From a virus, in the IMG/VR virus record IMGVR_UViG_3300034375_010798: DNA of 64,000 bases, one strand, 5' to 3'. The position numbers and the translations under genes are program-made. The notes below the pieces were generated by a model that worked only from the letters and a program-made list of their open reading frames with translations, made no database searches and was not told the DNA's origin. Below are positions 8,491-32,907 of this stretch, one piece after another; position 1 is the first letter of the stretch, and each line of letters starts with the position of its first letter.

Positions 8491-11400
8491 ATGGCCTTAA
8501 TTAGTGAAATACAATTACAAAATAAGTCTATACTCCCAGTAAAATTAGATGATACACAGAAATTTACCGCTGCTGGACTAACAGCAACGGAAACATTAGC
8601 TGTTTCAGACATTGTTCCTGTTTCAGCTAGTGGTATGTTAACACTAAAAAATAGTGGAAATGTTTCTTCTTATTTTCAAACAACAGCTGTTGATGGTGAT
8701 GTAGATTTATTTTTAAATAATGACAGCGATATATATTGGAATATAAAATTATCTGGTAGTAATAATGATGCATTTTTAATTAACGCACTAAATTCAGATA
8801 CAAACCCCACAACATACTTTTCCATAAATAAAACAGGTAATGTTGGATTTGGAACAACTAATGCAGCATCTGATACAGTTGCTGAATTTGTTTCTAATAA
8901 CTCTTCCTCTGCAGCAATTCAATTAACTAATAGTAATGACTCTACTTCAGTTAGAATGGTTTCTGACTCTTCAAGTGGTTCTATTGGAACTAAAACTAAT
9001 AACAAATTTGGTATTAAGGTTAATGATATAGATCAAATTTTTATAGATAATTCCGGTAATTTGGGCTTAAGTAATCCCACACCATATGGAGATAACACTT
9101 ATGGAACTATTACTTTTGGCGGAAACTCATGGGTTGGTTCACAAATTTCAGAAGCTGTTAATAATGATCTTTTTATTATCCAGAATGCTTATTTGGACAC
9201 ATCAACTTGGACTAGAATCACTGATTTAAGTTTAGCTACAAAATTAACACAGAATGCTTCTGGATGGAGTTTTCAAAACTCCACAACAAATACTGGAGCT
9301 ATTACGTGGCAAGACTTATTAACATTAGATAATACAGGGAACTTAACAGTTTCATTAGGTAATTTTGAAGTTACCACAGGAACTGCTACAATTACTGGAA
9401 ATACGGGTATTGGTGGGGCTTCTACTGGTGATAAGTTATATGTTGTTGGAACAACAAAATTAACTTCAACTCTAGATGTTGGTGGTAACACAACAATAAC
9501 AGGTAATATATCGCCCGAGGCTGATGGAACAAGAAATATAGGTTCTGATTTAGTTAGATGGGCTAATCTATATGCGGACAACATCAGCGTCACAAATGGT
9601 ATTAATGGATTAATAACTAATGATGCGGCAAATAAAGTTTTAACCTCTAACAATGATGGAACCGCTAATGCAGAAGCTAATTTAGGGTTTGATGGTTCAA
9701 CTCTATGTGTTGTTGGAGATATAGATGTATCTACTACATTAATAACAGGTGGAAGTATAACAAGCGGAGGAAGTGTTACACCATCAGTTGATGGAACAAA
9801 CAATCTTGGAACATCTTTATTAAGGTGGGGAACATTATATGTAGATAATATTGGAGATAATGGTCAAGCACTAGGTGTTGCTGCTACTACACTTTCTTTT
9901 GATACAGCCGCAACAATAGATACTAGTGGGGCAAATCAATTAGATATTAACACCGGAACAGCTAATCTAGCAATTACTTCTGGTGATGTTACTATGTCTG
10001 GTGGATTGACAGTTGACACTAACACTCTTGTAGTTGATTCAACTAATAATAATGTTGGTATAGCAACAACACCAAATGCGGCATATTCATTAGATGTTAA
10101 CGGTAATATAAACTTAAGTGGTGATCTTTATGTTGGTGGTTCATTGGCTGTTTTTAGTAATTGGTCAACTAATGCAACAACCATATACAGAAATTCTAAT
10201 GTTGGTATAGGTGATTTTAGTTCATCAGCTCCAGCATATAAGTTGGATGTGGATGGGCATATTAATATATCAACTGGCAATACTCTAAAAATAGGCGGCG
10301 TTGATGCGGTATTTAGCAACTGGACGGAAGATGGTAGTGGTGACATATATAGGGGTTCAAAAGTTGGTATTGGAGATAATCAATCGGGGTATTTTAGCAA
10401 TCAAGGACTTGATGTTAGTTTAGAAGTTGTTGGTTTCGCTAATGGGGATGCTGATTTATTGAGATTAACGAACTGGGAATTTTCCGCATTAACCACTGCA
10501 GCAGCCGTGCTTCAATGGGAGTTAAATTCAACTACTAATACTAAATCCATAGCTGGTGAAATGAAAGTTGGTAGAACAGGAGATTGGAATAATTCATCAA
10601 CCGGCACTATGGATGCCTACATGAGTTTTGAAACAAGGGTTGATGATGTCTTAGCTGAAAGAATGAGAATACATACAGATGGCAATGTTGGCATAGGTGT
10701 AAGTAGCCCAACTGAAGCTTTGGATGTTGATGGAAACATTAATATATCCTCTGGTAATACTCTAAAAATAGGTGGAGTTGATGCTGTTTTTAGCAACTGG
10801 ACGGAAAATGGTAGTGGTGATATATATAGGATTTCAAAAGTTGGCATAGGTGATGCTGGATCAGCGGGTTATATTAATAGTCAAGGAATTGATACTAATT
10901 TAGAAATTATTAGTAATTCCAATGGAGATGCTAATTTATTAAAATTAACAAACTGGAAGGCCGATAATCTCACCGTTGCATCAGCTGTGATTCAATGGGA
11001 GTTAGCCACTACCTCATTTACCTATTTAATAGGTGGTGAAATGAAAGTTGGTAGGTCGGCTGATTGGTCCGCTGGAACACCTAGCACTATTGACTCCTAT
11101 ATGAGTTTTGATACAAGGGTTGATAATACTTTAGCTGAAAGAATGAGAATACATACTAATGGTTTTGTTGGTATAAATCAAAACACTCCAGCATATACAC
11201 TAGATGTTGATGGTGATATAAATATATCTGCAGGTAATACACTAAAAATAAATGGAGCAGATGCTGTATTCAGTAATTGGACAGTTAATGGCTCAGACAT
11301 ATATAGAGATTCCAAAGTAGGTATTGGTTCAACAATAAGAGGTAATGTTTTTTATAATGGAACACATTCTGCTGTTCTTCAGTTAGAAGGAACTGATTTT

Positions 11401-12417: not shown

Positions 12418-12428
12418 GAAAATAAAAT

Positions 12429-12881
12429 ATGGCTAAATATAAAAATCTTATTGATGTTGGTAACTTAAACATTGATACTAACACATTAACTATTGATTGT
12501 GTTAACAATAGAGTGGGTGTCGGTGTTGTTGATCCTTCATACAACTTTACTGTAAAATCTCCAGCAACAGGTGATGCAACAATTGCCGCTTTTGTTAATA
12601 ATAATGATGGATTAAATCATGTTTTCGGAAAAGATGCTAGTAATAACGGTTATCAACGAATCTATAACTCAGCTGGCAACGCTTGTGTTCAAATAAACTC
12701 TAGTGGGGATTCTTATATTAATGGAGGTAATTTGGGCATTGGTATATCAAACCCATCATATAATTTAGATGTTACAGGTGATATAAACTTTACAGGAACC
12801 TTAAATCAAAATGGAGTTTCTTTTAATAATGTTGATGATGTCGCATCAATATCAACGGTATTTTTTTTAATGGGAGTATAG
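12429..12881 (+). CDS. Short tail fibre / stalk protein
   Basis: 150 aa; N-terminal MAKYKNLIDVGNLNIDTNTLTIDCVNN shared with 21100 and 27220; one fibre module; hydrophobic C-terminus VFFLMGV. Confidence 0.7.
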   Translation: MAKYKNLIDVGNLNIDTNTLTIDCVNNRVGVGVVDPSYNFTVKSPATGDATIAAFVNNNDGLNHVFGKDASNNGYQRIYNSAGNACVQINSSGDSYINGGNLGIGISNPSYNLDVTGDINFTGTLNQNGVSFNNVDDVASISTVFFLMGV

Positions 12882-12884
12882 ATA

Positions 12885-13223
12885 ATGCCAACAGCATATA
12901 AACCTTTTCACACACAAGGAACTACAGCAGTAACAACTTACGCTACACTTTATAATGTTCCAGCTTCTACTGAATCTGTCATATCAAGTATTGTTGTTTG
13001 TAACACAAACACATCAGCTGCTACATTTAGAGTAGGTATAGATGATACAGCTGGCGATCCGTTAATTACCAATGGTGAGTTTTTAGTATATGATGCTACA
13101 ATTGCGGCGAATGACACAATAACACTTACATTAGGTGTTGCATTAGATGCTGGTAAATATATTAGGGTTTCATCTTCTGAAAATACTGTTTTATTTTCTG
13201 TCTTTGTTTCGGAGATTTCTTAA
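12885..13223 (+). CDS. Small beta-sandwich virion protein, putative fibre adaptor
   Basis: 112 aa; GGAG RBS; TLYNVPAST...ISSIVVCN...YDATIAANDTITLTLG pattern recalled from small structural proteins lying between fibre genes in aquatic phages; TAATG overlap with the next gene. Confidence 0.55.
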   Translation: MPTAYKPFHTQGTTAVTTYATLYNVPASTESVISSIVVCNTNTSAATFRVGIDDTAGDPLITNGEFLVYDATIAANDTITLTLGVALDAGKYIRVSSSENTVLFSVFVSEIS

Positions 13224-16200
13224 TGGGTATAAGTTCTATAAGAAGTAAATATACACCTGCGGGTTCAAATAGAGAAATACAAATTAACGATAACGGTGTT
13301 TTGGGTTCTTCAAGTGGTTTTGTTTTAAATAGTTCTGGTAATGTTGGCATAGGAACGGACATGCCAACAGCACCTTTGCACTTAATTGCAGGAACGCCAA
13401 GTGCATCAGCTGATGCGTTTCATATTAGCGATGGCACTTACACCAACATTGCTATGTATTCTGGTGCTGCTGATGGTGAAATCCGCATTGGCGCGGCTGG
13501 CCAGCTTCGCGGTCGTTATGCTGCGCAATATGCAGGCACTCGCACAGGCCATAATTTTTCATTAGGCACCAACGACACCACGGCAATCACGATTGATAAC
13601 TCACAGCGCGTCGGCATTGGCACGACCGACCCATCTTTCCCTCTTGAAGTTGAGGCAGGCAGTGGTGTTAGTGGTTTGATGGTGGGTGGAACTGCAGGAC
13701 AAGTTGAATTACAGGGTGATGGGCAGGTATACGGTTATCAAAAATTAGACGTAGCATCAGCAGGTTTGCAGATCAAAGGATATTCGGATGGCGGTGGGGC
13801 AAAAACAGAACAAGCCAAAATGTTTTTGACTCAAGAAACCGCAGGTTCAGCAGGTGGTGAGATTAGGTTTTATACAAATGACGGCAGTGCAGTAACTGAA
13901 CGCGCACGCATATATAAGAATGGCGATATACGGTTTATCGGCACAGCTACAGATGCTTTCTACTGGGATGCATCGTCCTCGCGACTCGGCATAGGCACAG
14001 CCTCGCCAGATGGCACTCTGCACATACATACTGGCTCGGCTGGGTCAGTTACTGCCCATGGCTCGGCAGACGATTTAGTTATCGAGCACGCGAGCGATGC
14101 AGGACTGTCAATTCTAACTCCAGCAGCAAATAATGGTCGAATTTATTTCGGATCGCCCACCAATAATGCATACGGCCAGATTGATTACGATCACGCAACG
14201 AACGACATGGTGTTTGCTACCGCTGGAGCTGGTAGGCTAACGCTCAACGCATCTGGCAACATGGGGTTGAACGTAACGCCCAGTGCGTGGCGATCGACCG
14301 AGAGAGCATTACAGATAGATCGTCGTGCGGCTCTTTATGCCGATTCGCACGTTACAACTGCTCTCGCAAATAACTTATTTATTAATAGCTCTGGATACGC
14401 TCTAATAGAGGCAGATGCGGCATCTCAGTATATCCAGTATCAAGGTGAACATATCTGGCAGACAGTGGGTAGTGGATCAGCAGGTGCTAATGTTTCGCCC
14501 TCAACACTCATGACGCTGACTAGTGCAGGCAACCTTTCGATTGATACAGACACTTTATATGTTGACGCAGTTAATGACCGTCTTGGCGTAAACCAAGCTT
14601 TACCTACAGCGTCACTTACAGTGCAAGCGGCACATAACTCATTACACACAATGAAGATTGAAAATGCAGCTGGTAATGTTGTCCAAGAGACTTATATAAA
14701 TGGCGATGGGGATGGAGCTTTAAATATTAGAAACGCAGGTGGTCTTCATAAAATGCAGTTTAGCACCTATGAAGACTCGTTTATTAACGCAGGTTTTAAT
14801 TTAGGCATAGGCACGAACTCGCCAACGACTCTTCTTGAGTTGAATTCATCCTCTGGCCCAGAGATAACAATACAGCGTGATGATACACTGATTGCCGTGG
14901 ATGATTTAGTAGGCGGCATCCGTTTTAGTAGCAATGATGAAAGCATTGCGTTAGGGACACCACCCCATTATGGAGCAGGTATAAAAGTTAAGTCTCAAGG
15001 CACTGTTGGTTATCAAAATATGCTTCTCTACGCAGGACAGAACAATTTGGGATATGAAAACGACACGCCCTCACTGCGGTTAGTGTATAACGGCGATGTG
15101 AATTTTTACGATAACTCGGGTGCCGTTGCCATGAATTGGGATGCGCCAACAACGTCGCTCGGTATACGAACGGCCTCTCCAAACTTTCCTTTACAGGTGA
15201 TGGGAGAGGTTTTTGCAGGAGTGATGCCCGGTTTTGAACAATCTGGTAAATTTTATCTGGGCAGGGGTGACGGAACTGGCACGGATGTTCGTTATCACTA
15301 TATAGAGGCAAATAATTCTACGACAAAAGCAAGTAACTACCTCTCGTTTAACCTCCATACAGGCGCAACCACGACAAGCACTTCTGAACTTTTTCGATTG
15401 GAAGCGGGTCCGGGGTCTGGTGCGGTAAAAACAGTTAACATAGCTTTTAGGGGAAATTCAATTGAAAACTACACTACAGCTACCGACACCGGAAACTTGT
15501 GGGTAAACTATGAAGGATACCAAGGCGGCACAACTTATTTCCGTGATTTTAAAGTCGGCAACGGTAAACAATCGGTTATTGCTTTCTTTGACGGTTCAAG
15601 TGGCAATGTTGGCATTGGAACGGATGTGCCAGATACTTCACTTCATATTTCTGGAAGTGGCACTATTGTAGGTAAGACTGTTTCTACGAATGGATCGGCT
15701 GTTTGGCAAGCTGATTCTATATCTACCGAAGCTTCAATATTATATTTTACTACAGCCGGATCTCAAGCTTGGAAATTTCAAAAAGCTGCTGTTACTGGTA
15801 ATTTAGAAATAAGAAACTCAACTGACTTAACAAAATTTACTATGTTGGATAATGGTAATGTTGGTATAGGTGTAACTTCTCCTCCGTCATTACTAACACT
15901 TAAGGATGGTAATATTCTTTTAGCGCATAGCTCTACAGATGTTGATGGTGGTCACGGAATATTTTTTCACACTACAACTAATAATTGGTCTGAAGCTGCA
16001 GCACACGCTGCAATATATGGTAAAAGAGTAGATGGTAGCAATGGTTATCTTAGATTTGACACAAGAAGTGGTGGAACAACTGCTGAAAGAATGCGTCTTG
16101 ACTCGTCTGGCAATCTTTTAATCGGCTATACATCGTCGAATGGCAGTTACAAGTTACAAGTCAATTCTCAGATTTTTGCTACCAACGCAACTATTGCTAC

Positions 16201-16537
16201 GTCAGACGGACGATACAAAGAGGATGTGCAGACGCTATCCAACGCTACTGATTTAGTTTCGCGCCTCAATCCTGTTCAGTTCAAGTGGAAGGCCCATGAA
16301 ATACACAATTTAGACGTTGGTAAAACGGACGTTGGTTTTATCGCGCAAGAAGTGCAAGAGGTGTTGTCCGATACTGACTACAGTGATTCCGTGGTTGTTA
16401 CTAACAAAACAGACGATGAGGAATATTTGGGATTAGGTGAGACAAAGCTAATCCCGTTGCTGACAGCTGCACTGCAAGAAGCAATCACAAAAATAGAAAC
16501 CCTTGAAACCAAAGTAGCCGCACTGGAATCGGTATGA
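13223..16537 (+). CDS. Tail fibre protein with C-terminal intramolecular chaperone (peptidase S74)
   Basis: 1104 aa; GNVGIGT repeats; TSDGRYKEDV...LNPVQFKWK...GFIAQEV...LTAALQE coiled-coil tail; visibly higher GC than its flanks. Confidence 0.85.
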   Translation: MGISSIRSKYTPAGSNREIQINDNGVLGSSSGFVLNSSGNVGIGTDMPTAPLHLIAGTPSASADAFHISDGTYTNIAMYSGAADGEIRIGAAGQLRGRYAAQYAGTRTGHNFSLGTNDTTAITIDNSQRVGIGTTDPSFPLEVEAGSGVSGLMVGGTAGQVELQGDGQVYGYQKLDVASAGLQIKGYSDGGGAKTEQAKMFLTQETAGSAGGEIRFYTNDGSAVTERARIYKNGDIRFIGTATDAFYWDASSSRLGIGTASPDGTLHIHTGSAGSVTAHGSADDLVIEHASDAGLSILTPAANNGRIYFGSPTNNAYGQIDYDHATNDMVFATAGAGRLTLNASGNMGLNVTPSAWRSTERALQIDRRAALYADSHVTTALANNLFINSSGYALIEADAASQYIQYQGEHIWQTVGSGSAGANVSPSTLMTLTSAGNLSIDTDTLYVDAVNDRLGVNQALPTASLTVQAAHNSLHTMKIENAAGNVVQETYINGDGDGALNIRNAGGLHKMQFSTYEDSFINAGFNLGIGTNSPTTLLELNSSSGPEITIQRDDTLIAVDDLVGGIRFSSNDESIALGTPPHYGAGIKVKSQGTVGYQNMLLYAGQNNLGYENDTPSLRLVYNGDVNFYDNSGAVAMNWDAPTTSLGIRTASPNFPLQVMGEVFAGVMPGFEQSGKFYLGRGDGTGTDVRYHYIEANNSTTKASNYLSFNLHTGATTTSTSELFRLEAGPGSGAVKTVNIAFRGNSIENYTTATDTGNLWVNYEGYQGGTTYFRDFKVGNGKQSVIAFFDGSSGNVGIGTDVPDTSLHISGSGTIVGKTVSTNGSAVWQADSISTEASILYFTTAGSQAWKFQKAAVTGNLEIRNSTDLTKFTMLDNGNVGIGVTSPPSLLTLKDGNILLAHSSTDVDGGHGIFFHTTTNNWSEAAAHAAIYGKRVDGSNGYLRFDTRSGGTTAERMRLDSSGNLLIGYTSSNGSYKLQVNSQIFATNATIATSDGRYKEDVQTLSNATDLVSRLNPVQFKWKAHEIHNLDVGKTDVGFIAQEVQEVLSDTDYSDSVVVTNKTDDEEYLGLGETKLIPLLTAALQEAITKIETLETKVAALESV

Positions 16538-16549
16538 GGAGAATAGACA

Positions 16550-16612
16550 ATGGCTTACCAAGGCAATGCCGAAACTAGTGATGTTCATACCCAAGTATTA
16601 AGATTAATGTAA
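16550..16612 (+). pseudogene. Vestigial 20-codon gene start (MAYQGNAETSDVHTQVLRLM)
   Basis: Strong GAGGAG RBS overlapping the previous stop codon; MAYxGN resembles a common phage fibre N-terminus; the frame closes where the sequence returns to AT-rich composition. Confidence 0.45.
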
Positions 16613-16629: not shown

Positions 16630-19600
16630 ATGGCAATAAATAGCTTATCAACATTAACAGAGTTTCCTTCTTTATGGTCTCAAAATGGAACTTCAATTTA
16701 TTATAATTCTGGAAATTTGGGAATAGGGTTAAGTAATCCGGGATTTAACTTAGATGTTGTTGGGGATATAAATTTTAGTGGTGATTTGTTGCAAAATGGT
16801 GTTGTTATGACCTTTGGTCAGTTTGACACAGATGGTGACGGAACTAGTATTGTTTATAATAATGGTGGTGAGGTTGTATTAGATAAAATAAGAAGTAATA
16901 CTTTAGGTGATGGTGTTTTTACTATAAGAGATTGCACAAACTCTACAGGAAAGTGGCAAAATAGAATAGGAACTGATGATTCGTATAATTTAGATTATTA
17001 TAATGGTTCATCTTGGTCAAACTGTGTTTTTGTTGACACTATTGGATTAAATGTAAACGCAACATCTGGGGAAAGATTATCTATAAGAAATGCTAGTGGC
17101 ATATCAAATAATGAAGATTTAGGTGGTGTTTCTTGGATGCAAGAAGGTAGCACTGGAACTGTTGTTGGTAATATTTTTATGTTGGGTGATTCCGATGGAG
17201 GAACAACAGGAAGAGGTAAAATGTTTTTTGGAGTTAGAGGTAATGACTCTAATCAAAGTGCAATATGTCAAATGTCATTAGATAGTTTTGGTAATGTAAA
17301 TATAGGTGGTAATTTTAATTCTTCTAGTAAACTTTATGTTGGTAAAACATCTTGGGGTATAAATGAAGCAAATCCTCTTGTAAACTTTGCTGTAACTGCC
17401 TCTGGAACGAACGGAAGTGGGTCTTATACAAGTAGAATAATGAAACTATATAGTGATGGATCATTCACTTCAGAGGTAGACAATGATGATAATATAATAG
17501 GTTTAGAAATAGAGATGGATGTTACTGGGCCTGTTAATAAAATACCGTTACGAATTACTGGTGATAACAATTATAATTATGATTTTACCTCTCAAAGCAA
17601 TGGGGTTACACCCGGAACAAGATTAGATATGTTTGTTGGTTCAAGTGCTGGTGATTTTTCTTTTAGTAATTCTGGTGGAGAGTTATTAAGAATAAAGGGA
17701 AGTGGTAATGTTGGCATAGGCACGGACTCGCCAGAGCATACTCTGCATGTAAGAGGTTCGGGCAACGGTGCAGTTATTGAAGTTGAAGATACGGCAGCTA
17801 ACGGAAACCCTGTGTTCCGATTGAAAAACGATGCACAAGAATGGCAGTGGCAGTTGAGAGGTGCAGAGTCTGATTCGCTTGTAGCGTGGGACGTTACGGG
17901 GGTTACAGGTCGGCTTTATTTAACCACAGCGGGCAATTTGGGATTGGGTGCGTCCTCGCCAGTTAATTTTTCAAACCAGACTTCTCTTACAGTAAATGGA
18001 ACATCAGTAGGACGAGTAGACGTAAAAGCTAGTGGGAGCGGTGGCGGTGCAATGTTTGGAACATCGTCAGCATTAACAATGCAAGCTAATTCTGGCGTAG
18101 CATTAAATTTAGACTCCGCATCTGGACAGCCTATTACGTTTCAAGTTGGTAGTAGTGAGAAGGCACGCATCACGAGCGCAGGCGTTATGCAAGTGGGTGG
18201 TCAAACAGGCACATTGAAGTTGGGCAACGATGGAACGTATCATGGGACGATTGAATGGGAATACGCAAACAACGAATTAGCGCACACCATCAACAATGTT
18301 GGAGTTCATACGTTTAATACAAACGGTAAAGAAGTGGCGCGATTTACTCAATCTACTTCTAATTCGGGTGGATTAATTCTTAAAAGCAATGCAGGGAATG
18401 ATCTCATCGCTATGGGGGCAGAGGGTTCTGGTGGTAATGAGGAAAATGGTTTCATTGCAGGTTATCAGAATGGGACACAAAAATTTTCAATCGGTGCAAC
18501 AACAGGTCCGACATGGTTTAATACAGGCCAAAATTTTGGCATAGGCACGGACTCGCCTTCATATCCCTTACATATAGCTAGATCGGCTGGATCGACCTGC
18601 ACACTATTAAATCTCCAATCTTGCACAAACAGTTCAGAGGGAAATAGAGTTCAACTGGCTTTTTCAAGCCAAGTCGCACTTGATAGTCAAACACGGATTA
18701 ATGCAGCTATTGATTCTATAACCCACAGTGTCGCCTATTCCCATTACGGTGATTTAGCATTTCTTACTATGAATGCAGCAGTCCTTACTGAAAAAATGAG
18801 AATAACTAGTGATGGTAAGGTTGGCCTTGGTAGTAATGCACCAGTTTACTTATTTGATATGGGAAGTGGGAACGCAAGAAATATTAGAGTTGGAACTAGA
18901 ACATTTATTGGAAGTGGATATTCCGGATCATCAACTATACTAGGTTATAATGTAATAGCGGATGAGTCAACAACAGCGACTAATAGAATGATTATTACAG
19001 AAACATCAACTGGCAATGGTTTGCCAGCCGCTATTAATATGTTTGCTGGAAATATGGAGTTTCATACAGCTCCTTCGGGAACAATAAATGATGAAATGTC
19101 ATGTCTTAGGCTTAGAATTATTAATGCTGGAACTGTGGAGATTTATAATGCAGCAGATCCAGATGGAACAGAAGATTCTTTAAGAATATATGCACAAGAT
19201 GGAGATAGTAGATTTACAGTAGGTAATAATGGAGCAAACCATAGTGCTGTAATGAAACTTTCAAACAGCACCGGAGCTATTACTCATTGTCTAAACTCTC
19301 ATGGTGGTATTGCTTGTCATAATGGATGTGTAATATCACCTACAGTTTGTGGATCAACTATAGTGAAAACAAAAACTCTTTGTGTTTGCGAAGGAACGTT
19401 GGCGGCGAGCCACCCAAGAGTTTTACTTAATATGGATGCTTGCAAAACTGATGTGGGAAGTGAAACTGCAACTTGTTTTAGAGTATCGGTTAATGCAGAT
19501 AATAATTGTTCTATAATATACACCGGTGATACTGCTAATAATCCAGCAGTTTTATGCACAACTGCGGCACACTTTAGAGCATGTGGACCTATTGGAACTC

Positions 19601-21084: not shown

Positions 21085-21099
21085 AATAAGAGTAATAAT

Positions 21100-24000
21100 A
21101 TGGCCAAGTATAAAAATTTAATAGATATTGGTAATTTAAATATTGATAACAACACACTAACTATTGATTGTGTTAATAACAAAGTTGGCATAGGCACGTC
21201 CGAGCCAACAGCCACTTTAACAGTGGCTGGCCCAAACACTCAAACAAGTCTGGGCGGACCAAATGCACTCAATATTATGGATGGCAATGCTGACAACGAG
21301 TTTGTCACCTTGAATTTTCAAACGGGTGCAGGTGGCCCCTTAGCCGCTATAGGCGCAAAAGCTATTACTACTGGCGTGTATCCCAACACCGTTGGTGAGT
21401 TGCATTTTGCCGTCCAAAAAGGCGCCGCACGATTCACCGCTATGGTTATCGACGAGGATCGACAAGTCGGCATAGGCACGTCAGTTCCCGAAACAAGATT
21501 ACACATCGGTGGGACATCACAATTTATAAAAATGGATTCTGGAGCAACTACTCATTTGTATTTGGGTGGTGAAAATGATTTTTTTGCTCTATCTCACAAC
21601 AGACACCCATCGACTGGAGTGATTGATAACGCTGCTTGTGGTGTAGGTGTAATACAATACGAAAACGCAGTTGGGTGGTCATTTTCCGCAAATACAGGTG
21701 GAGCATTTACTAATCGTATGGTTATACTTAATGATGGCAATGTCGGCATAGGAACGACCTCGCCATCTTCATATTCTGCAGACGCTCGCAATTTAGTCGT
21801 TGCTTCAAGTGGTAATGGTGGGGTGACGATAAAATCTGGAACAACTTCTACGGGTAATATCTTTTTTGCGAACGCTGAAGCATCTGCCTCAAACAATGGC
21901 ATAATCCAGTATAACCACAACACTAAAGAGTTTAGATTTGACAATTACGGAACCAATCAGTTTTACAGTTTTAATATACAGAACAGTGAAAAAATGAGAA
22001 TAACTTGTGCTGGTGATGTTGGCATAGGTAGATTTACCAACTTGCAAGGTAAGTTAGATGTTGATGGTGATTTAAGAGTAACAAGGGAAATCGCAGCTAA
22101 CACCGCTTGGGAAATGATTTCTTTGGGTAGTGATAGAGGTATAGATGATTATGGTGGTTTATATAAAGATTATTGGAGAATAAATGTTGTAACTCCCGGA
22201 CCCACAACCACTGGGGAATCTGATGATCATAGATTTGGTGACTTGCGTTTTTCTGGTGTTACGGGAGCTAACACCACTTACGCAGACAGAATGACGATAA
22301 GATACAATGGCAGGGTTGGTGTAGGTGTTAAGGTTCCAGAAGCTACTTTTCATGTTGAAAGATCGTCCGGAACTACGGAGTATATAGCTAAATTTAAAAA
22401 CTCAACAACAGCTACTCCATATACTGTGTATATTCAAGAACCATCTGGTGCAGCCACTGGATATCCATTATTAAATGTGGCAAGCGGTGATGGATTAACA
22501 TCCTTTCTTCGTATAAATTCTGGCAATGGTCATGTTGGTATAGGTAAATCTCCATCACTAACATATGGAACAGATATAGTTGGTGATGTTAATATAACTG
22601 GAACTTATTATATTAACGGATCACCTTTTGCTGGAGGAGCCAGTCAATGGAGCACTACTGGATCTGATATATATTTTTGGAATCAAGTTGGAATAGGGAC
22701 TGACACAATAGACTCTCAAAATATACTACACTTAAAAGACGCAACAAATGGATATGTAGGTATAAGAATGGAGGGTAGTGGCTCTTATAATCACAATTGG
22801 TCTATATATGCTAGTGGCGATGGATCAGGTAATGAATTCTTAGGTATTTATGATGCAACTCAAAACTTATATAGATTTCAAGTTAATGAACTCGGCAATA
22901 TTGCAATAGGAGTTACTCCTAATGAAAATTGGCTTACCTCATGGCGAGTAATTGAGATAGGGGCAGGTAGTGGATTAGGTGGAACTATTTTTACCAACAA
23001 CGGAGGAGTTTCTGGTCAGATAGGTATAGGTCAAAACTGGTATTATAATCAGAGTGATGGAAATAACAAGTATGTTTATACTGCTCCAGCAAGCGATTAT
23101 ATTCAATATAATGGAACTCACCAATGGAGATCAGCTCCCTCTGGAACATCGGGTAACAATGTAACCTTAACACAAAAAATGTTTATAAATTCTGATGGAT
23201 ATGTTGCAATAGGTAATCATAGCCCATTAGCTCTTCTTCATCTATTGGGATCTTCTGAAGCTTCTAACACCGAAATCAGAATTGAACATAGTCCTTCTTC
23301 AGGCTCCGCCACTTCGAATATTCGTTTTAAGCGCGATGGCGCAGATTTTGCATATGTTGGAGGCGCTGCAGCTAGTATTAGCGGAGCCAGTTTAACGGAT
23401 TTAGGGTTATCTGTTCCGAGTGGAAAGAATATTATTTTTGGAACGAACACGACGGAAAGAATGAGAATAACTAGTTCTGGTCTTGTTGGCATTGGCACTG
23501 ATGATCCAAAAGCTTTATTAAATATTAGAAAAGGAACTGGTGGAACTGACCCTTCTTACGCAGCAGATGATTTGCTTATATTAAGAAATAACACAGCCTC
23601 TGGAGATGGGGCACGCATTAGTATAATAGCAGGTCTTATATCTGATGCCACTATAGGGTTTGGTGATGAAGATTTAAGAGATGCAGGCAGAATAGTTTAT
23701 AATAATATTAATAATTGTTTGAGATTTGGAACAGCAGGTGTTGATGATCGCATGACAATAGATAACACTGGTAAGGTTTATATTAGAACTGGTGGTTTAT
23801 ATCTTGATGGTTCAAATAATTTATATTTAGGTGACACCTCTGTGAATGGAGCTGCTGCTATTAACCTTCAATCAACAAACAGCAATACTAACTGGCAAAT
23901 AAGACAAAACAATGTTGTTGCTGGTGATTTAACTATTACACCATCAACAGCTGTTGGCGGAACTACATTTACAACGCCAACAATGTCTTTTGTTGATAAT

Positions 24001-26913
24001 AGAGTAGGTATTGGTGTTAATAATCCAAACTCTTCATATAAATTAGATATATCCGGCGATGTCAATATAACCGGAACTTATTATGCTAACGGATCACCAA
24101 TTGCTGGCGGCGGTAACCCTTGGTCTACTAGCGGCTCTGATATATATTATCTTAATAATATATCTGTTGGAACATCGGCCGCGAGTGAGGGTATAAGATT
24201 ATGTGGTAGAATAGTTGCAGGAAGATCTAGTAACAGTTCCGTGGCCACTCTTTGGCAATCAATTACATCAGATAACTCTGCATCAATAACAAATAAATCT
24301 TGTCAAGGATCACTTCTTGTTGCATCGCAGAACGACGCCGTTTCAACTGATTTGCAAGGGTTAACACAAGACCAATGGACGAGCATCGACTTTGCTGGTC
24401 TTTGTTCTGTGGCTGGATCACATGGTGGCGGATTTACAGGCGCGAGAATAGCTGTTCAATATCCTTGTATGGCTCAAGACGGATCGGCTGTTTTAAATAG
24501 TGATTTTGTTTTCTTACCAACAGATACATCTAACAACTTTTTTGAAGCTATGAGAATTGTTGGAAGAAATGGCAGCGTTGGCATTGGCCAAGATTCTCCG
24601 GAAGTTCGTCTTGATGTTAGAAAAGATGAAACTGTAAATTTTGCACCTAATAATGACCAAAGAATAAGAGCACAAATTGTTGCTAGAAACAATAATGAAA
24701 CTGCGGAGGATTTTTCTAGTATTAGTCTTGTTACAGGAGCTGGCCTTCAAGCTGAATGGTCTATCAATAATATTTATAAATCTGCTTATAATGGTGATTT
24801 ATCTTTTAAAACAAGAGCTGGTGGTGGCAACGCTGATTGGCGTGAAAGAATGAGAATAACTAATAGCGGAAATATTGGTATAGGTATTGATTCACCAACA
24901 ACAGAAAATGGAAAAGTTTTACATGTAAACGCAGATGTTGCTGATACTCAATCTAGACTACATATGACAAATATAGCAACTGGAACTGCAGACACGGATG
25001 GATTTTATATAACTGTTTTAGGTAATGAAAGTGGCTCGGCCTCTGGTCAAGTTCATTTTCAAAACCATGAAAGTAATGATATGAAATTTGTTTTTGGTAG
25101 TGGTGGTTCTGCTAAATGTAGGTTTACTATTAATTGTGATGGTCATGTGGGTATAGGAACTCCGCATGTTCCAAATTATATGTTTTCAGTATATAATGAT
25201 CGCGATCAAACAATAACAAAAACAGCAGAAATATGCACTTATTTTGGAGAACCAGCTGGTGCCGGAACTGGCGCTGTTACGGCTTATTGTAAAACTCTTG
25301 AACTATATTCAACATATGTTTGTATGCCAACGGGTGTTATTGATGATGGATACAGAGTTGGATTAGGGGTTCAAAGTTATATTAACAATAGTCAGTTTGT
25401 TGGAACTTTAAAAGATGTTTGGGGTGTTTGGGCAAGAGCTGGTTCTAATACAACTAATCCCACAGGAACTATATGTTGTGCGGTATCAGTAAAAATTGAC
25501 ACATTAAAAGGAGCTAACACAACTATAAATCATCAGTATGGAATATATCAAAGCGGTGATAATAGTGAAGCTAAAAACTATTTTGATAATCGTGTAGGTA
25601 TTGGTAACACTGAACCGTGTTGTGTTTGTTTGGCAGTATCTAAATCAAACTCAAATACAAATTTTACATCTGGTGGGCATAATGTATTACAAGTAGCAAA
25701 CCCAGACACAACAGCATGTAATATGGCATCTATTTCTTTTTGGGATGGCGATGCAACTAACCCCTTTGGAAGTGCTACTATTACAGCTAGATTTTGTAGA
25801 GACAATATGGCTACTGATCTTATGTTTTCTACAAGAGATAATACTGGAAGTTCTCAGATAAGAATGAGGTTAGATAAGTTTGGTTCACTTCTTGTGGGAA
25901 CTAATGCGGTTGGATTATGCACTGGGAGCCTTGTTACTAAATGCTGTGCAGCATTACAAATTATGAACACATCAACTAGTAATGCGACTCCGGGAATTTC
26001 TGTAACCAGATTTTGCGCAGACGCCGTTGGGGCTTATATATCTTTATCTAAATCTAGAAGTAATACAATAGGAACATTATCATATCCTTTATCTGGAGAC
26101 ACTATTGGGGTTGTGTCTTTTGACGCAGCATGTCCAACTGGTAATATAATAGCTCCAGTAGCTCAAATACAATCCCACGCCGCGGCAAATCACTCTGACG
26201 GTGCTGGCGGAGGGAGTTTGGAGTTTTATACTGATCAACGAGGTAATGGAACTGGAAATCTCTTACAAAGAATGTGTATACATGATCAAGGAGCTGTGTA
26301 TTTTAGAGATGGAGGTGTGGCTTCAACACACAAAGTTATTATTGCAGGCGATCAAGATTTATCAACAATAGCGGATACTCCATCACCTACGGGTCAACCA
26401 TTGGTTGTAGCTAGAGATACTGGAACTGATGTATCTATTGCTACTGGTGGAAATATATGTATTAATAGTGGTTATGGTGTTGTTTTTGGAGCAAATGGGG
26501 AAGTATTAGATTCATACGAAGAGGGATCATGGACACCAACAATAAATGGAACGATAACTAACCCAACTGTAAATTATACAACAGCGTGTGGTAGATATAC
26601 AAAAATTGGTGATACTGTTTTTCTTGCTGGTTATGTTTTTGTAACAGCTGGTAATTTAAGTGGTGGTGCGGGAAATATATTAATTGGGAACTTACCCTTT
26701 AATATAAAAACTCTTCACGATGGGGCATACCAAGCACTACCGTTGGGTTATGCAAGAGCTAATGGCGCTGCTATTTTAGCTGACACATCCGAAACTCACC
26801 CAAGACTACAAGCAAACCTCGCAACACAATTAGAATTATATGGAACAAATAAAACTAATTGGGGAGGTGGATTATACGAAATAAGTTTTTTTGGAACATT
26901 GAAAACGGCTTAG
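21100..26913 (+). CDS. Long tail fibre protein
   Basis: 1937 aa; MAKYKNLID anchor; more than a dozen GxVGIG / E(R/K)MRI modules; C-terminal YEEGSWTP...GRYTKIG...NLPF tip domain. Confidence 0.85.
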   Translation: MAKYKNLIDIGNLNIDNNTLTIDCVNNKVGIGTSEPTATLTVAGPNTQTSLGGPNALNIMDGNADNEFVTLNFQTGAGGPLAAIGAKAITTGVYPNTVGELHFAVQKGAARFTAMVIDEDRQVGIGTSVPETRLHIGGTSQFIKMDSGATTHLYLGGENDFFALSHNRHPSTGVIDNAACGVGVIQYENAVGWSFSANTGGAFTNRMVILNDGNVGIGTTSPSSYSADARNLVVASSGNGGVTIKSGTTSTGNIFFANAEASASNNGIIQYNHNTKEFRFDNYGTNQFYSFNIQNSEKMRITCAGDVGIGRFTNLQGKLDVDGDLRVTREIAANTAWEMISLGSDRGIDDYGGLYKDYWRINVVTPGPTTTGESDDHRFGDLRFSGVTGANTTYADRMTIRYNGRVGVGVKVPEATFHVERSSGTTEYIAKFKNSTTATPYTVYIQEPSGAATGYPLLNVASGDGLTSFLRINSGNGHVGIGKSPSLTYGTDIVGDVNITGTYYINGSPFAGGASQWSTTGSDIYFWNQVGIGTDTIDSQNILHLKDATNGYVGIRMEGSGSYNHNWSIYASGDGSGNEFLGIYDATQNLYRFQVNELGNIAIGVTPNENWLTSWRVIEIGAGSGLGGTIFTNNGGVSGQIGIGQNWYYNQSDGNNKYVYTAPASDYIQYNGTHQWRSAPSGTSGNNVTLTQKMFINSDGYVAIGNHSPLALLHLLGSSEASNTEIRIEHSPSSGSATSNIRFKRDGADFAYVGGAAASISGASLTDLGLSVPSGKNIIFGTNTTERMRITSSGLVGIGTDDPKALLNIRKGTGGTDPSYAADDLLILRNNTASGDGARISIIAGLISDATIGFGDEDLRDAGRIVYNNINNCLRFGTAGVDDRMTIDNTGKVYIRTGGLYLDGSNNLYLGDTSVNGAAAINLQSTNSNTNWQIRQNNVVAGDLTITPSTAVGGTTFTTPTMSFVDNRVGIGVNNPNSSYKLDISGDVNITGTYYANGSPIAGGGNPWSTSGSDIYYLNNISVGTSAASEGIRLCGRIVAGRSSNSSVATLWQSITSDNSASITNKSCQGSLLVASQNDAVSTDLQGLTQDQWTSIDFAGLCSVAGSHGGGFTGARIAVQYPCMAQDGSAVLNSDFVFLPTDTSNNFFEAMRIVGRNGSVGIGQDSPEVRLDVRKDETVNFAPNNDQRIRAQIVARNNNETAEDFSSISLVTGAGLQAEWSINNIYKSAYNGDLSFKTRAGGGNADWRERMRITNSGNIGIGIDSPTTENGKVLHVNADVADTQSRLHMTNIATGTADTDGFYITVLGNESGSASGQVHFQNHESNDMKFVFGSGGSAKCRFTINCDGHVGIGTPHVPNYMFSVYNDRDQTITKTAEICTYFGEPAGAGTGAVTAYCKTLELYSTYVCMPTGVIDDGYRVGLGVQSYINNSQFVGTLKDVWGVWARAGSNTTNPTGTICCAVSVKIDTLKGANTTINHQYGIYQSGDNSEAKNYFDNRVGIGNTEPCCVCLAVSKSNSNTNFTSGGHNVLQVANPDTTACNMASISFWDGDATNPFGSATITARFCRDNMATDLMFSTRDNTGSSQIRMRLDKFGSLLVGTNAVGLCTGSLVTKCCAALQIMNTSTSNATPGISVTRFCADAVGAYISLSKSRSNTIGTLSYPLSGDTIGVVSFDAACPTGNIIAPVAQIQSHAAANHSDGAGGGSLEFYTDQRGNGTGNLLQRMCIHDQGAVYFRDGGVASTHKVIIAGDQDLSTIADTPSPTGQPLVVARDTGTDVSIATGGNICINSGYGVVFGANGEVLDSYEEGSWTPTINGTITNPTVNYTTACGRYTKIGDTVFLAGYVFVTAGNLSGGAGNILIGNLPFNIKTLHDGAYQALPLGYARANGAAILADTSETHPRLQANLATQLELYGTNKTNWGGGLYEISFFGTLKTA

Positions 26914-26960
26914 CACATACTTTAATAGAGTTATATTTATTATAAAAGTGGAGAAAAAGT

Positions 26961-27218
26961 ATGTTTGAAAAAATAATTAAGGTTGATTCTATAGAAATTA
27001 TTGGTGATTATAAAATAATACAATACAGAATTGCAACTATAGTTTTAGAGGATAACAAACAAATATCAAAAACATTTCATAGAAATACTATTGCTCCAAA
27101 TCATGATTTACAAGAAATACCTAAAGAAGTAAAAGATATAGCTATGTTTGTTTGGACAGATGATATAAAATCATTATATAAATTACATTTAGAAGATGTA
27201 AATAATTCTAAGGTATAA
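26961..27218 (+). CDS. Putative tail fibre assembly chaperone / tip-associated protein
   Basis: 85 aa; GGAG RBS; VDSIEI...IQYRIATIVLED...SKTFHR...VWT pattern typical of small genes following YEEGxWTP-type fibres. Confidence 0.55.
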   Translation: MFEKIIKVDSIEIIGDYKIIQYRIATIVLEDNKQISKTFHRNTIAPNHDLQEIPKEVKDIAMFVWTDDIKSLYKLHLEDVNNSKV

Positions 27219-27219
27219 T

Positions 27220-30200: not shown

Positions 30201-32907
30201 AGTTGTCATAAGTGGTGATACTAATACAAACAAACGCCTAAATATTGGTTTTGACACATCTACTGATAAGGGATTTTTGCAAGCGGGTATTAACGGAACT
30301 GGTTATAATGATTTATTATTAAACCCCAACGGTGGTAATGTTGGCATAGGTGTAACAGGACCTAGCCGCGCACTACATATTAAATCATCTAATGAAACAA
30401 CCTTTGCTGTTCCTTCAACAATTATGATAGAAGGAACAGATAGCTATAACTCTGGAACAGCTGGCGCTGGTATAATATTTCTTGGTAAGTATGATAGTCT
30501 TTCTAACGCAACTACCTTTGGTGTTATAGGAGCTGTAAAGGAAAACACAGTTGATGCTAACTATGGTGGTGCATTAGTTTTTCACACAAGAATAAATGGG
30601 GGTTTAGGCGATGAAAGATTACGTATTAATTCCGCCGGTAATGTTGGCATAAACGAAACCAATCCCGTTACTCAACTTCACGTTTCTTCTTATGCTGGAA
30701 TAGGTAAAATACGATTAGAAGATGATGCTGGTAGAACGGTAGAAATACAAAGCCCAAGTAGTGGTGCGGATAATGGTAGAATAGGAACTATAACAAACCA
30801 CGATTTTGAAATACACGCCGGTAATGGTAATGGAACAAACTTTATACGTTTCCTTACTGACAACGATGAAAAAATGAGAATAACTAATGCTGGTTTTGTT
30901 GGCATTAATATGGTGGAACCACCCCGTCAATTATCAGTTTTGGGTGAGGGAAATGCTACTGTCGCAACTATTATAACTCCATCTACAAATGGAGGTAATT
31001 TCGGCATATTAGATTTAAAAAGACAAGACAATGCAGTTAATTCTTCTATAGGTGTTCGTTTTAGTCACGGAAACAGCGCAGATGTAACTAATGATATAGA
31101 ATATGGTTTCATAGGTGGTGGTATAGAAGTTTGCACTGCCGGTTCAGAAAAGGGGTTTTTAAATTTTGCAGTTGGGCCAGCGCGAACAGAATATATGAGA
31201 ATAACTGGTGATGGTGACGTTAGTATAGGTGGTAACACTACACCATTAGCCAGACTTCATGTTGCTGATGAATACAGCTCCGATAGTGATATTGCTTATT
31301 TTGAAAACACACACAGCGATGGCGGAGCATTTCTTACAATAAAGCAATATGAAACAACTGCACAGCCTGTGCGCTCAGCAGCGATAAGATTAGGGACAAA
31401 AGGAAGTATAATCTGGTATCAAGGTATATTGCGTAGAGGTGGTAGCGATCACTTCAACACATGGTCTTTGAATACAACAAACGATAATAATACATCAGAA
31501 GCAAAATTTGCTGTAACAACAGGTGGTAATGTTGGCATAGGTGAAACTAGGCCTCCATCATTACTAACACTTAAGGGTGGTAATATTCTTTTAGAGCATA
31601 ACTCTACAGGAGCTGATGATGGTCACGGAATATTTTTTCACACTACAACTAATAGTTGGTCTGAAGCTGCTGCACACGCTGCAATATATGGTAAAAGAGT
31701 AGATGCTAGTAATGGTTATCTTAGATTTGACACAAGAAGTGGTGGAACAACTGCTGAAAAAATGAGAGTAACTAGTGCTGGCAATCTTTCTGTAAATGAA
31801 GCATACAACACCGCTTTTACGAATACTTCGGGCACTGCAAGATATATTGGTGTAGCATCTAATAATAATGACGCTTTATTTATAGCTCACTCTTCTGGTC
31901 AAGGTGTTGGTTATTTTGGTTATGATTATAGTGCTGATAGATTGATTATAGCTACTGATAACGGAGCTGGAGGAAACTCTATACAATTTTCAGTTAATGC
32001 AGGCACTACAAGTAATGGAACTGGTGATAACCTTGCCGCAGCGACTGCCGCTATGATCATTCTCGCTAATGAAAATGTCGGCATAGGAACGGACGCGCCA
32101 AGCTTTCGTCTTACCGTTCACGGTTCTTCTGGTTCTGATGGGGATTTTAACGGATATAATGGCACCACTACTGGCACTTTCCGACCAAATGGTTTCCTCC
32201 CAGATTTGATGGTATGTAGACCTTATACTGGATTCAGTGGTGGTGGAAATACATTAAGAGGACATATGGCATTCGGCGACGGTGTTGGTATTTATTCCGT
32301 CAACCCTAATACGGGAGGAAGTTCTCTTTATGGTGATATAAGGTTTTATACTTCGGTTTATGGATCAGGAAGTAGTTATTGCGCTATAGATAGAATGACT
32401 ATAACCTGTGATGGTGAGGTTTGTGCTCATAAAACTATAGTAACACCAAAATTGGAGGTTAATGGTGATATATATCAAAACGGTGACACTTTTTATGAAA
32501 CAAACAGTTTTACACCAACAATTGTCGCGAGCACTAGTAACCCAACAGTAGGATATTCAGTTCAATATGGTAGATATACTAGAATAGGTAATTTAGTAAC
32601 AGTGCAAATAAAAATTGATATATCAAGTATCTCTGGTGGCAGCGGTCAATTGAGAATTGGGGGTCTGCCATTTACATCAAATACTGATGCCAACTACCGA
32701 TCCGCGGGTATATCTTCTTTCACAAGAGGGTTTAATAACGGTGGGGGGGCAATTACTCTAAACATAGGGCCAAATACAACAGAAGCTGGTTTGTATAGAT
32801 GGACTGATAGCAGTAATTTTGACACAGAACTAGCTCCTGCAGATATTTCTTCTGTTCCAGCTACAATCCATGCAAGTCTTACATATGAGGCTAATTCTTG
32901 GACATAA
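27220..32907 (+). CDS. Long tail fibre protein
   Basis: 1895 aa; MAKYKNLID anchor; many GNVGIG / EKMRI modules; a carbohydrate-binding-like insert around 29520-30090; C-terminal FTP...GRYTRIGN...GLPF tip domain. Confidence 0.85.
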   Translation: MAKYKNLIDIGNLNIDNNTLTIDCVNNRVGVGEVNPTLSLHVNSGAGNQVATFESSDVDAYINIKDSAGNATIGTRSGDMTFYIDDAFTEAMRIKNDTSVGIGTTAVASGYKLTTSGSVFVNAGGGTGITINGAAGGNRILRFHTGDISSNSIRWGLAANGTTESGLDAGSDFGIYRYDDAGSYISEALTIKRSTGNVGLNCATPPASLSINAGNRPDQDAVYIVGTPDDGKSILCIRSNHTSGATKRLIHVTRSGKEGLFVVNNSEAVGIGTTEPSKKLEISNARSETNFSTNANVFFSLENDNTTVNNFASMQFHDGSGLGSAYIGTRFLRTNKGGDLFFATRYDATGSAAIRMTINDAGLVGIANENPSYTLDVTGNINFTGNLTLNGSVYGGASGFWTSNVNDIYYTAGGIAIGTSTPTAAKLTIVNNTSTAYANVAPNISDFGLVISNNVNHVSGGVFSGLQFNQTGNSQNRITYIGAITEDTNQHSSLVFGTDSGGSGRTEKMRINSAGNVGVGTNNIVDHASFSRALVVNGPSGGAIYVKDNDSSTDVGVFGQTNTCTYIENLAVGPIRFYICNGSDFSERMRITSSGTLAVGTETPSAHALLKADFAGDLLLSTGTTSTLYLQDTTNWLQLISGDMRFGLSSDEKMRITNGGNVGINNSSPSTNAVIHAVGTSFTGASGAIILEDKRADANPYIAIENDARVYQLQTVGARDDNFEILDSTAGSVRLAVTSTGDVGIGSTNPTSKLYVSGNIYGENLLSRNTYINKSYSSDYNFSLYPELADGNIRPEVLEYSSANSANVTYGNTNESDAPYAEYFATDGNLTLCGAKIPVCAGESVYGEVWVKRASGATGTAGDLYFGVVREDKDCNPISTNAGIIYFVSAETIPTDGVWHKYSGNLTLPTSHTPFNGSDGGPVRYIEPHLLVNYSAGTIPTCVSNIIVRKTNINSDSGPANILGNVGIGTESPLLKLHIQGDVAGGSYNQISGQVVISGDTNTNKRLNIGFDTSTDKGFLQAGINGTGYNDLLLNPNGGNVGIGVTGPSRALHIKSSNETTFAVPSTIMIEGTDSYNSGTAGAGIIFLGKYDSLSNATTFGVIGAVKENTVDANYGGALVFHTRINGGLGDERLRINSAGNVGINETNPVTQLHVSSYAGIGKIRLEDDAGRTVEIQSPSSGADNGRIGTITNHDFEIHAGNGNGTNFIRFLTDNDEKMRITNAGFVGINMVEPPRQLSVLGEGNATVATIITPSTNGGNFGILDLKRQDNAVNSSIGVRFSHGNSADVTNDIEYGFIGGGIEVCTAGSEKGFLNFAVGPARTEYMRITGDGDVSIGGNTTPLARLHVADEYSSDSDIAYFENTHSDGGAFLTIKQYETTAQPVRSAAIRLGTKGSIIWYQGILRRGGSDHFNTWSLNTTNDNNTSEAKFAVTTGGNVGIGETRPPSLLTLKGGNILLEHNSTGADDGHGIFFHTTTNSWSEAAAHAAIYGKRVDASNGYLRFDTRSGGTTAEKMRVTSAGNLSVNEAYNTAFTNTSGTARYIGVASNNNDALFIAHSSGQGVGYFGYDYSADRLIIATDNGAGGNSIQFSVNAGTTSNGTGDNLAAATAAMIILANENVGIGTDAPSFRLTVHGSSGSDGDFNGYNGTTTGTFRPNGFLPDLMVCRPYTGFSGGGNTLRGHMAFGDGVGIYSVNPNTGGSSLYGDIRFYTSVYGSGSSYCAIDRMTITCDGEVCAHKTIVTPKLEVNGDIYQNGDTFYETNSFTPTIVASTSNPTVGYSVQYGRYTRIGNLVTVQIKIDISSISGGSGQLRIGGLPFTSNTDANYRSAGISSFTRGFNNGGGAITLNIGPNTTEAGLYRWTDSSNFDTELAPADISSVPATIHASLTYEANSWT

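Follow-up and report, generated by a model that had tools for sequence, protein, structure and literature searches.

Apparent exchange of tail fibre modules at a short conserved joint in uncultured aquatic T4-like phages

The 64,000-nucleotide (nt) stretch of DNA analyzed here, which will be referred to as the window, corresponds to the reverse strand of a 109-kb virus record of the IMG/VR database (IMGVR_UViG_3300034375_010798), estimated to be 40% complete, in which all 79 open reading frames (ORFs) lie on one strand. Its source is an uncultured aquatic T4-like phage. The sheath protein shows at most 33% identity to that of any cultured phage, and a nucleotide search of cultured phages gave a single match, of 66 nt, in a cyanophage structural gene; given these weak matches, there is no annotated close relative. 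The window holds five large tail fibre genes made of modules that meet at a short conserved joint, in the center of which lies the 8-mer GGCATAGG. In a preliminary description of this DNA, the fibres were proposed to be chains of cassettes joined at this nucleotide-conserved motif, which would be a point for in-frame exchange, insertion and deletion, similar to a shufflon or an integron. The analysis of the modules, of the spelling of the joint and of related metagenomic phages presented below agrees with the cassette organization and with the position of the exchange points, and leads to a different view of how the exchange takes place.

Fibre genes and the joint between their modules

The fibre genes and an example of the joint are listed here, with G1 indicating the first Gly of the motif.

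8491..12417, + strand: fibre gene 1, 1308 aa, around 11 motif copies, GGCATAGG at 10690 and 10843; PHROG tail fibre families 18345 and 9942
12429..12881, + strand: short fibre-like ORF, 150 aa, with the N-terminal adapter found also in fibre genes 4 and 5, followed by 2-3 motif copies (12516, 12735) and a stop
13223..16537, + strand: fibre gene 2, 1104 aa, 44.6% GC, GGCATAGG at 13346, 13988 and 14804
16630..21084, + strand: fibre gene 3, 1484 aa, GGCATAGG at 17713 and 18538; C-terminal S74 chaperone (Pfam Peptidase_S74, E=3e-12)
21100..26913, + strand: fibre gene 4, 1937 aa, around 17 motif copies, GGCATAGG at 21187, 21469, 21745 and 22021, with a spacing of 92-94 codons
27220..32907, + strand: fibre gene 5, 1895 aa, around 22 motif copies, GGCATAGG at 28027, 29449, 30118, 30343, 31534 and 32080
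13313..13378, + strand: example joint block in fibre gene 2, from G1-33 to G1+32, with an exact 9-bp dyad at 13342-13369

All five large proteins were assigned to tail fibres with PHROGs. A C-terminal S74 chaperone is present only in ORFs 13223-16537 (Pfam Peptidase_S74, E=7e-15) and 16630-21084, the other three fibre genes being of a non-S74 type, and a Pfam scan of the fibre proteins gave no named domain besides S74. As for ORF 12429-12881, it may correspond to a stub fibre or to what was left over after a module deletion.

The 17 copies of GGCATAGG listed in the preliminary description were all found at their positions on the + strand and none on the - strand, while dinucleotide-preserving shuffles of the window contained 1.05 on average and never more than 5. 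In agreement with that description, 17 out of 17 are in frame 0 and code for G-I-G, and they are spread over the five fibre genes. An 18th copy exists in the public record at window position 3417, where the window has GGT instead (GGT-ATA-GG, within ORF 981-3536 and also coding for G-I-G). Altogether, the window and the public record show 17 single-base differences, located (0-based) at 411, 447, 1606, 1624, 2451, 3151, 3166, 3418, 4122, 22325, 36097, 38394, 40046, 50144, 50355, 62276 and 63979, which may stem from strain variation or from editing.

The 8-mer is the middle of a repeated peptide, E-R-M-R-I-T-x-x-G-N-V-G-I-G-T-x-x-P-x-x-x-L-x-V, around 60 copies of which can be recognized in six fibre ORFs, at distances of 50-330 codons (most commonly 70-110). 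In the example block, the DNA codes first for the strand that closes one module, then for the G-N-V-G-I-G-T-x-x-P-x-x-x-L loop, and finally for the beginning of the module that follows. A profile built from 18 modules of the window matched solved fibre domains of Bdellovibrio bacteriovorus (8ond, Bd2133, E=7e-26; 8oml, E=6e-15; 8ojn, E=2e-12), with Bd1334 and Bd3182 among the proteins matched, and the aligned MAT domains of this bacterium show the same ERMRI..GN.G.GT..P...LHV strings as the modules of the window. The AlphaFold monomer model of one module is all-beta (pLDDT 73.6), and in a Foldseek search with this model MAT domains ranked first, although weakly (E=3e-3, TM 0.3-0.5). In those fibres a capping loop, with consensus V-G-G/N-pi-x-x-P-x-x-x-L, has been described at the beta-helix edges of intertwined trimeric domains (Caulton et al., 2024, PMC10769870). 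These profile and string matches identify the motif of the window as the capping loop known from such domains; each cassette would thus be one beta-helix module and the motif the structural seam between two of them. A full-text literature search for peptide strings (VGIGT, NVGIG and others) returned no fibre-related result.

Mosaic relatives and the position of breakpoints

Relatives, designated here by L numbers, were found by searching viral and metagenome contigs with the fibre proteins. Single modules of the window recur in these related metagenomic phages with 83-98% nucleotide identity, although arranged in a different order and placed in different genes. The modules of ORF 101-5314 of L252, for instance, match in series positions 21736-22028, 11664-11928, 30867-31229, 15600-15882, 24568-24889 and 31750-32056, that is, pieces from four genes of the window that are 84-97% identical, and ORF 9830-14359 of L259 brings together pieces of three window genes in one reading frame. 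Assembly chimeras are an unlikely cause, since the same arrangements repeat across different samples (L246, L257-L260; L252/L253; L251/L254) and the window's own arrangement is present in sequencing runs of many studies, with freshwater, estuary and salt-marsh runs among those where the phage occurs. Moreover, the modules of L252/L253 are 88-97% identical to those of the window, while the syntenic backbone (33006-38133) is just 77% identical, and L250 represents the reverse case, with a 94% identical backbone and fibre modules of 72-84%. Both contrasts require horizontal exchange of modules. The backbone segment itself, located downstream of the fibres, is a glycosyltransferase/carbamoyltransferase cluster which is syntenic in L250 (94%), L252/L253 (77%) and L258 (64%) and is stable, unlike the fibres.

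The segments that best illustrate the exchange among phages and among the genes of the window are the following, with ends in parentheses given relative to the motif:

21736..22028, + strand: module shared with L252/L253, 95% identity vs 77% for the backbone, running from motif to motif (-9 to +7)
24568..24889, + strand: module shared with L246, L251, L252, L258 and L259, 88-94% identity, motif to motif (-12 to +12)
30865..31774, + strand: three-module block shared with L246/L251, 97% identity, starting in one ERMRIT box and stopping in the next one
15853..16118, + strand: module copied within the phage, 90.6% identical to 31524-31789, with ends at -10 and 0 of the motif in both
31524..31789, + strand: paralogue of 15853-16118 in fibre gene 5, motif to motif
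21095..21188, + strand: N-terminal adapter common to ORF 12429 and fibre genes 4 and 5, 84-89% nucleotide identity up to the first motif copy
10243-10851 / 10720-11328, + strand: tandem duplication inside fibre gene 1, 74% identity by self-blast, ending at motif +8

In the case of the adapter, identity stops between +1 and +9 of the first motif, with 88% between 12423-12525 and 27214-27316. Contigs from four metagenome runs were also inspected; most of their joints have a short side of 21-38 nt, in which one motif copy matches another, and were disregarded. Contigs from other samples revealed an alternative arrangement that leads from 22311 to 15443, as well as the replacement of a segment flanked by motif copies 27309 and 27516; these two joints have sides of 202 and 255 nt. 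An in-frame skip from 23489 to 24591, both ends of which are at motif copies, has a shorter side of 35 nt. A different type of skip was seen at 30425-31848, where 1422 nt are missing, with 15 other letters in their place, from contigs of two runs, one of seawater and one of freshwater, the net result being the loss of 469 codons in frame; its ends are off the recognized motif copies (+82, +59) and its shorter side is just 21 nt.

For a quantitative analysis of breakpoints, blocks of at least 100 nt with at least 80% identity were considered, those ends that coincided with contig or gene ends were removed, and shared events were merged, which resulted in 48 unique ends. Thirty-five of them fall in the 66-nt block from G1-40 to +25, which represents 17.9% of the fibre sequence (binomial p=1.2e-16), and 19 lie between -12 and +8 of the first Gly, where 2.8 would be expected. 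The location of in-frame exchange, insertion and deletion at the motif, put forward in the preliminary description and implying that breakpoints between related phages should be enriched there, is thus upheld, together with the view of the fibres as chains of cassettes. Left ends gather near -11, whereas right ends do so near +5, a pattern to be expected if the true switch is inside G-N-V-G-I-G. Paralogous blocks within the window also end at the motif.

Junctions were clean when aligned. Identity starts or stops at GGCATAGG in some of them (13986, 15870, 32087) and within the ERMRIT box in others (24864, 30865, 31774), and in three-way alignments the switch from one parent to the other takes place within ERMRIT..GNVGIG, the parents sharing 8-14 nt. 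Breakpoints occur alike at GGC copies, at GGT copies (15863, 24877, 11320) and at degenerate copies (16118, 31789, 11929, 31222), three of which (16118, 31789 and 11929) do not have G-I-G, and some crossovers are found in the ERMRIT box, around 30 nt upstream of the Gly of the motif. Taken as a whole, the alignments indicate that single modules have been swapped among related phages at the DNA of a short conserved loop motif.

A repeat-domain protein outside the fibres also differs between the window and its relatives. In ORF 3821-7996, which encodes a 1391-aa structural protein, a segment of around 190-220 nt at 7073-7324 is single-copy in the window, and in L251 (5760-10153) and L254 (1450-5843) it forms a long tandem overlapping run with 69-91% identity, so the copy number of this repeat domain varies between the window and these relatives.

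Codon spelling and composition at the joint

The use of codons at the joint departs from that of the rest of the fibre genes. In the 37 strict copies of the motif ([VLFIA]GIG), the first Gly is GGC in 22, compared to 13.8% for Gly at other positions in the fibre genes (p=1.3e-10), and Ile is ATA in 28, compared to 54% (p=0.005); the third Gly shows no clear codon bias in these copies. With a wider definition of the motif (n=52), GGC is used for the first Gly in 26 (p=4e-10), ACG for Thr at +3 in 10 of 18 (vs 8%, p=4e-7), TCG for Ser at +5 in 6 of 14 (vs 7%, p=2e-4) and AAT for Asn at -2 in 21 of 21 (vs 68%, p=3e-4), and ATC is found at none of the 41 motif Ile positions. Since four columns each hold a locked codon and ATC is never used, the locked codons spell one string of around 24 nt, AAT-GTY-GGC-ATA-GGN-ACG-NNN-TCG-CC, rather than a GC-rich patch.

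Local codon bias, to which the preliminary description had pointed as a possible cause, does not explain these figures, and other candidates were discarded as well. Regarding the context of neighboring codons, only 17 of the 146 Gly residues that precede Ile outside the motif in this genome are encoded by GGC. Regional GC is not the cause, as GGC copies are present in modules with GC content at third codon positions (GC3) of 0.13-0.20; around GGC copies regional GC3 is 0.25, vs 0.21 around the others (p=0.03). GC-biased gene conversion is discarded by the retention of AAT and ATA and the lack of ATC, and translational optimization by the sheath gene, which favors GGT (54 of 87 Gly codons) and has only 10 GGC. 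The codon locking is real, and composition, context and expression fail to account for it.

Two further features of the joint had been noted, namely that the codon before Pro often ends in G and that a GGC...GCC dyad results. The first is enriched (11 of 37, vs 10% of all codons, p=8e-4), but the effect is modest when other Pro residues are taken as reference (15%, p=0.018). As to the second, the 9-bp arms at 13342-13369 are exact and constitute the sole exact 9-bp case; hairpin energy over all copies is close to that of synonymous resampling (-5.3 vs -4.8 kcal/mol, p=0.11), and therefore the dyad is not a general feature and is unsupported as a site.

Relatives keep GGC at the first Gly (17/23 in L259, 9/12 in L258, 8/11 in L253, 7/10 in L251 and 3/3 in L129, vs a background of 14-26%). 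To extend the comparison beyond them, a survey with the degenerate pattern G-N-V-G-I-G-T provided 225 sites in 120 unrelated viral loci. GGC-ATA is used in just 4 of the 225, which rules out a universal nucleotide signal, and unrelated loci below 38% GC have GGC as the first Gly codon at 5 of their 87 sites. Several unrelated loci lock their own codon at the same Gly: GGG in L078 (6/7, vs 9%) and L091 (4/6), GGT in L120 (8/8) and GGC in L015 (7/10). GGC is also locked at this Gly in L105, an unrelated IMG/VR locus. In unrelated loci with a locked codon and in the window alike, module flanks have around 0.30 nucleotide identity, which is the random level, vs 0.6-0.85 for the core; for the GGC-type copies of the window the values are 0.30 and 0.64. 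Because the spelling is common to relatives, unrelated loci lock other codons and the flanks are random, the locked spelling is a lineage-specific house style, as expected from homogenization in a recombining gene pool, and not a universal signal.

Base composition changes at the joints too. GC3 ranges from 0.10 to 0.46 among motif-bounded segments (from 0.12 to 0.44 per module in fibre gene 2), and its variance between segments is 37.5, vs 24.4 +/- 3.1 when boundaries are circularly shifted (p=0.0004), the excess being observed in three genes and overall. This confirms the shift in GC content at the joints reported in the preliminary description. The clearest example is a cassette of fibre gene 3 bounded by an exact direct repeat:

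17711..17732, + strand: left joint core, exact 22-nt direct repeat with its partner 275 codons away; L130 homology starts at 17702
17733..18535, + strand: cassette between the 22-nt repeats, GC3 0.45 and 0.33 vs 0.16 upstream and 0.19-0.29 downstream
18536..18557, + strand: right joint core, exact 22-nt direct repeat; L129 homology (80.5%) stops at 18557

The matches to relatives are confined to the cassette. In L130, a relative with 51% GC, the joint is spelled GGC-ACG-GCC-TCG-CCA.

Recombination at the joint and comparison with known systems

We consider it probable that these fibres are diversified by homologous recombination at a conserved structural joint, the lineage-specific spelling of which is kept alike by repeated exchange. 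The five genes would encode trimeric beta-helix fibres formed by autonomous modules of around 50-330 codons, most often 70-110, each closing with the strand E-R-M-R-I-T, with the next one opening with the capping loop G-N-V-G-I-G-T-x-x-P-x-x-x-L. All modules would in this way have around 45-65 nt of joint DNA in common, in one frame and one orientation, and general homologous (homeologous) recombination could pair any two copies of the joint via 8-22 nt of identity. Strand exchange would probably be carried out by the phage's own RecA/UvsX-type protein, in co-infection or during replication, and whole modules would thereby be swapped, inserted, deleted or duplicated in frame, both among paralogous fibre genes and from one related phage to another, with selection retaining those chimeras that fold and bind a useful receptor. 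The string AAT-GTY-GGC-ATA-GGN-ACG-NNN-TCG-CC would be the house spelling of the gene pool, alike because every exchange crosses it (concerted evolution), and not the recognition site of a dedicated recombinase; identity at the joint might also be favored as an aid to further exchange.

The search for recombination functions, which the preliminary description had proposed to extend beyond the window, gave a RecA-family (UvsX-like) gene at G000:C1:9652-10455 (E=1.9e-51). In the 109-kb record, around 40% complete, there was no match to Tyr or Ser recombinases (PF00589, PF00239), for which positive controls matched, nor to reverse transcriptase (PF00078), and a GIY-YIG nuclease was not found. The record has two HNH-domain genes. 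One is a small ORF at 59706-59972 (E=3e-6), between baseplate genes, and the other encodes a 219-aa protein (E=4e-14) and is upstream of the window, at G000:C1:103117-103263. No tRNA genes were found in the window.

Several considerations weigh against the explanation given above. BLAST extension may pull ends located around 15 nt outside into the joint block, which raises the expected share of breakpoints to around 26%, and a very large excess still remains. Selection at the protein level alone would also gather surviving breakpoints at domain boundaries, and the enrichment leaves the role of nucleotide identity unproven. In addition, the exchange is read indirectly, from assembled contigs; the motif copies are not independent, their modules being common to relatives, which makes the p-values for codon locking optimistic; and the C at Gly, A at Ile and T at Asn are accounted for by none of the mechanisms tested. 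Finally, given the completeness of the record, a dedicated enzyme may lie in the remainder.

The second of these considerations can be developed into an explanation by protein constraint only, according to which recombination would be random or illegitimate, only those chimeras with domain-boundary joints would survive, and the spelling would be a founder or hitch-hiking effect with no role in exchange. The motif is indeed a known structural element, and breakpoints at domain boundaries are predicted here too; furthermore, GGC copies go with a GIGT..P...LH sub-type and with the slightly higher regional GC3 mentioned above, and the joint of the 51%-GC relative L130 has GGC, followed by ACG-GCC-TCG-CCA. 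We nevertheless regard this explanation as unlikely, although as a serious alternative. Recent common descent of whole modules does not explain GGC copies with random flanks and a conserved core, the invariant AAT and the lack of ATC amount to a specific spelling and not to what the base composition of a donor would give, the junctions are located where 8-14 nt are identical in both parents, and several unrelated lineages each lock a different codon.

A variant of recombination at the joint would have the codon-locked core as an evolved recombination signal, through second-order selection in which identical joints raise in-frame exchange. A phage nuclease, for example of the HNH type, might help by nicking near the core, and the "dialect" of each lineage would set its trading partners. 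This seems to us rather doubtful.

That a recombinase or nuclease shuffles the cassettes in frame at a core site of sequence GGCATAGG(A/C)ACG-N5-GCC is very improbable. The nucleotide-conserved core, the one perfect 9-bp dyad, the exact 22-nt direct repeat that flanks a cassette, the two HNH-domain genes and the incomplete record speak for such a system. Against it, neither a Tyr/Ser recombinase nor a GIY-YIG nuclease nor a reverse transcriptase was found in the 109-kb record, the 8-mer is rarely used by other phages that have this peptide motif, and breakpoints are located also at GGT copies, at degenerate ones and, 30 nt upstream, in the ERMRIT box. With every motif copy in direct orientation on a single strand, no segment is invertible; this, with the dyad limited to one exact case, leaves unsupported the likeness to a shufflon or an integron that the preliminary description had drawn. 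Translational selection, with GGC, ACG and TCG placed at the loop for decoding accuracy or for a ribosome pause during folding of the previous module, would fit locked codons at the most conserved residues of a domain boundary, but is hardly credible given the preference for GGT in the presumably highly expressed sheath gene, the equally conserved yet unlocked third Gly, the GGG or GGT locked in other lineages and the lack of tRNA genes in the window.

Tail fibres set which bacteria a phage infects, and this locus offers an unusually clean natural record of how fibres are rebuilt, with single modules passing from one to another of the five genes of a phage, and also among phages the backbones of which are only 77% identical, and with seams that can be mapped to around 20 nt. 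It also ties a structurally defined element, the MAT/S74 capping loop, to a putative genetic role as exchange joint. The synonymous sites of the joint are lineage-specific, and if their spelling limits recombination partners, exchange communities could exist among uncultured aquatic phages, and a simple design rule for chimeric laboratory fibres would follow: cut and join at the capping loop.

Among known systems, shufflons and invertible fibre segments (Rci; Gin/Cin/Min) rely on a dedicated recombinase and inverted repeat sites, and bring about reversible switching within one genome. The window shares with them the diversification of an adhesin or fibre by DNA rearrangement; unlike them, it has no inverted sites, with 17 copies on the + strand and none on the - strand, and no recombinase was found in the record. 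Integrons are based on the IntI integrase and attC palindromes, and their cassettes are whole promoterless genes. In the window, by contrast, a cassette is just a portion of an ORF, in frame with the rest of it, most motif copies lack the dyad and no Tyr recombinase was found in the record. The fibres differ too from diversity-generating retroelements, which have a reverse transcriptase and a template/variable repeat pair, in that the record has no match to reverse transcriptase.

Two other comparisons concern modules and short homologies. The MAT fibres of Bdellovibrio bacteriovorus (PMC10769870; 8ond, 8oml, 8ojn) and S74-type phage fibres have the same repeated domain, capping loop and mosaic architecture. 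The study of MAT fibres deals with proteins and structural mosaicism, and its sections on these aspects do not address DNA-level joints or breakpoints (PMC10769870); unlike MAT fibres, those of the window are phage genes, with up to around 22 modules each. PeSLs have been described as mobile regulatory cassettes that act as mini-homologies in the modular shuffling of T4-type genomes (Arbiol et al., 2010, PMC2839356). The short repeats of the window could likewise act as homology patches for recombination, although PeSLs, as described there, are regulatory and shuffle whole genes, whereas the repeat of the window is coding, is in frame and moves parts of genes.

The closest precedent is found in T-even phages, where exchanges take place in or near conserved motifs, the His boxes of gp37 and the glycine-rich motifs of gp38, via the general recombination of the phage (Trojet et al., 2011, PMC3157838, citing Tetart et al., 1996, 1998). 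As in those genes, short conserved motifs separate variable segments in host-recognition genes of a T4-type phage, the ends of exchanged segments fall in or near the motifs, and a general recombination gene (RecA/UvsX-like) is present. Unlike in gp37/gp38, the motif of the window is a beta-helix capping loop and the unit of exchange an entire structural module, drawn from a pool common to at least five paralogs in one genome, and the joint keeps synonymous codons that run counter to the codon bias of the genome; T-even exchange is known from genetic crosses, while that of the window phage is read from contigs. The fibres of the window add a well-documented case to the motif-mediated modular exchange already known for phage fibres, and no new recombination mechanism.

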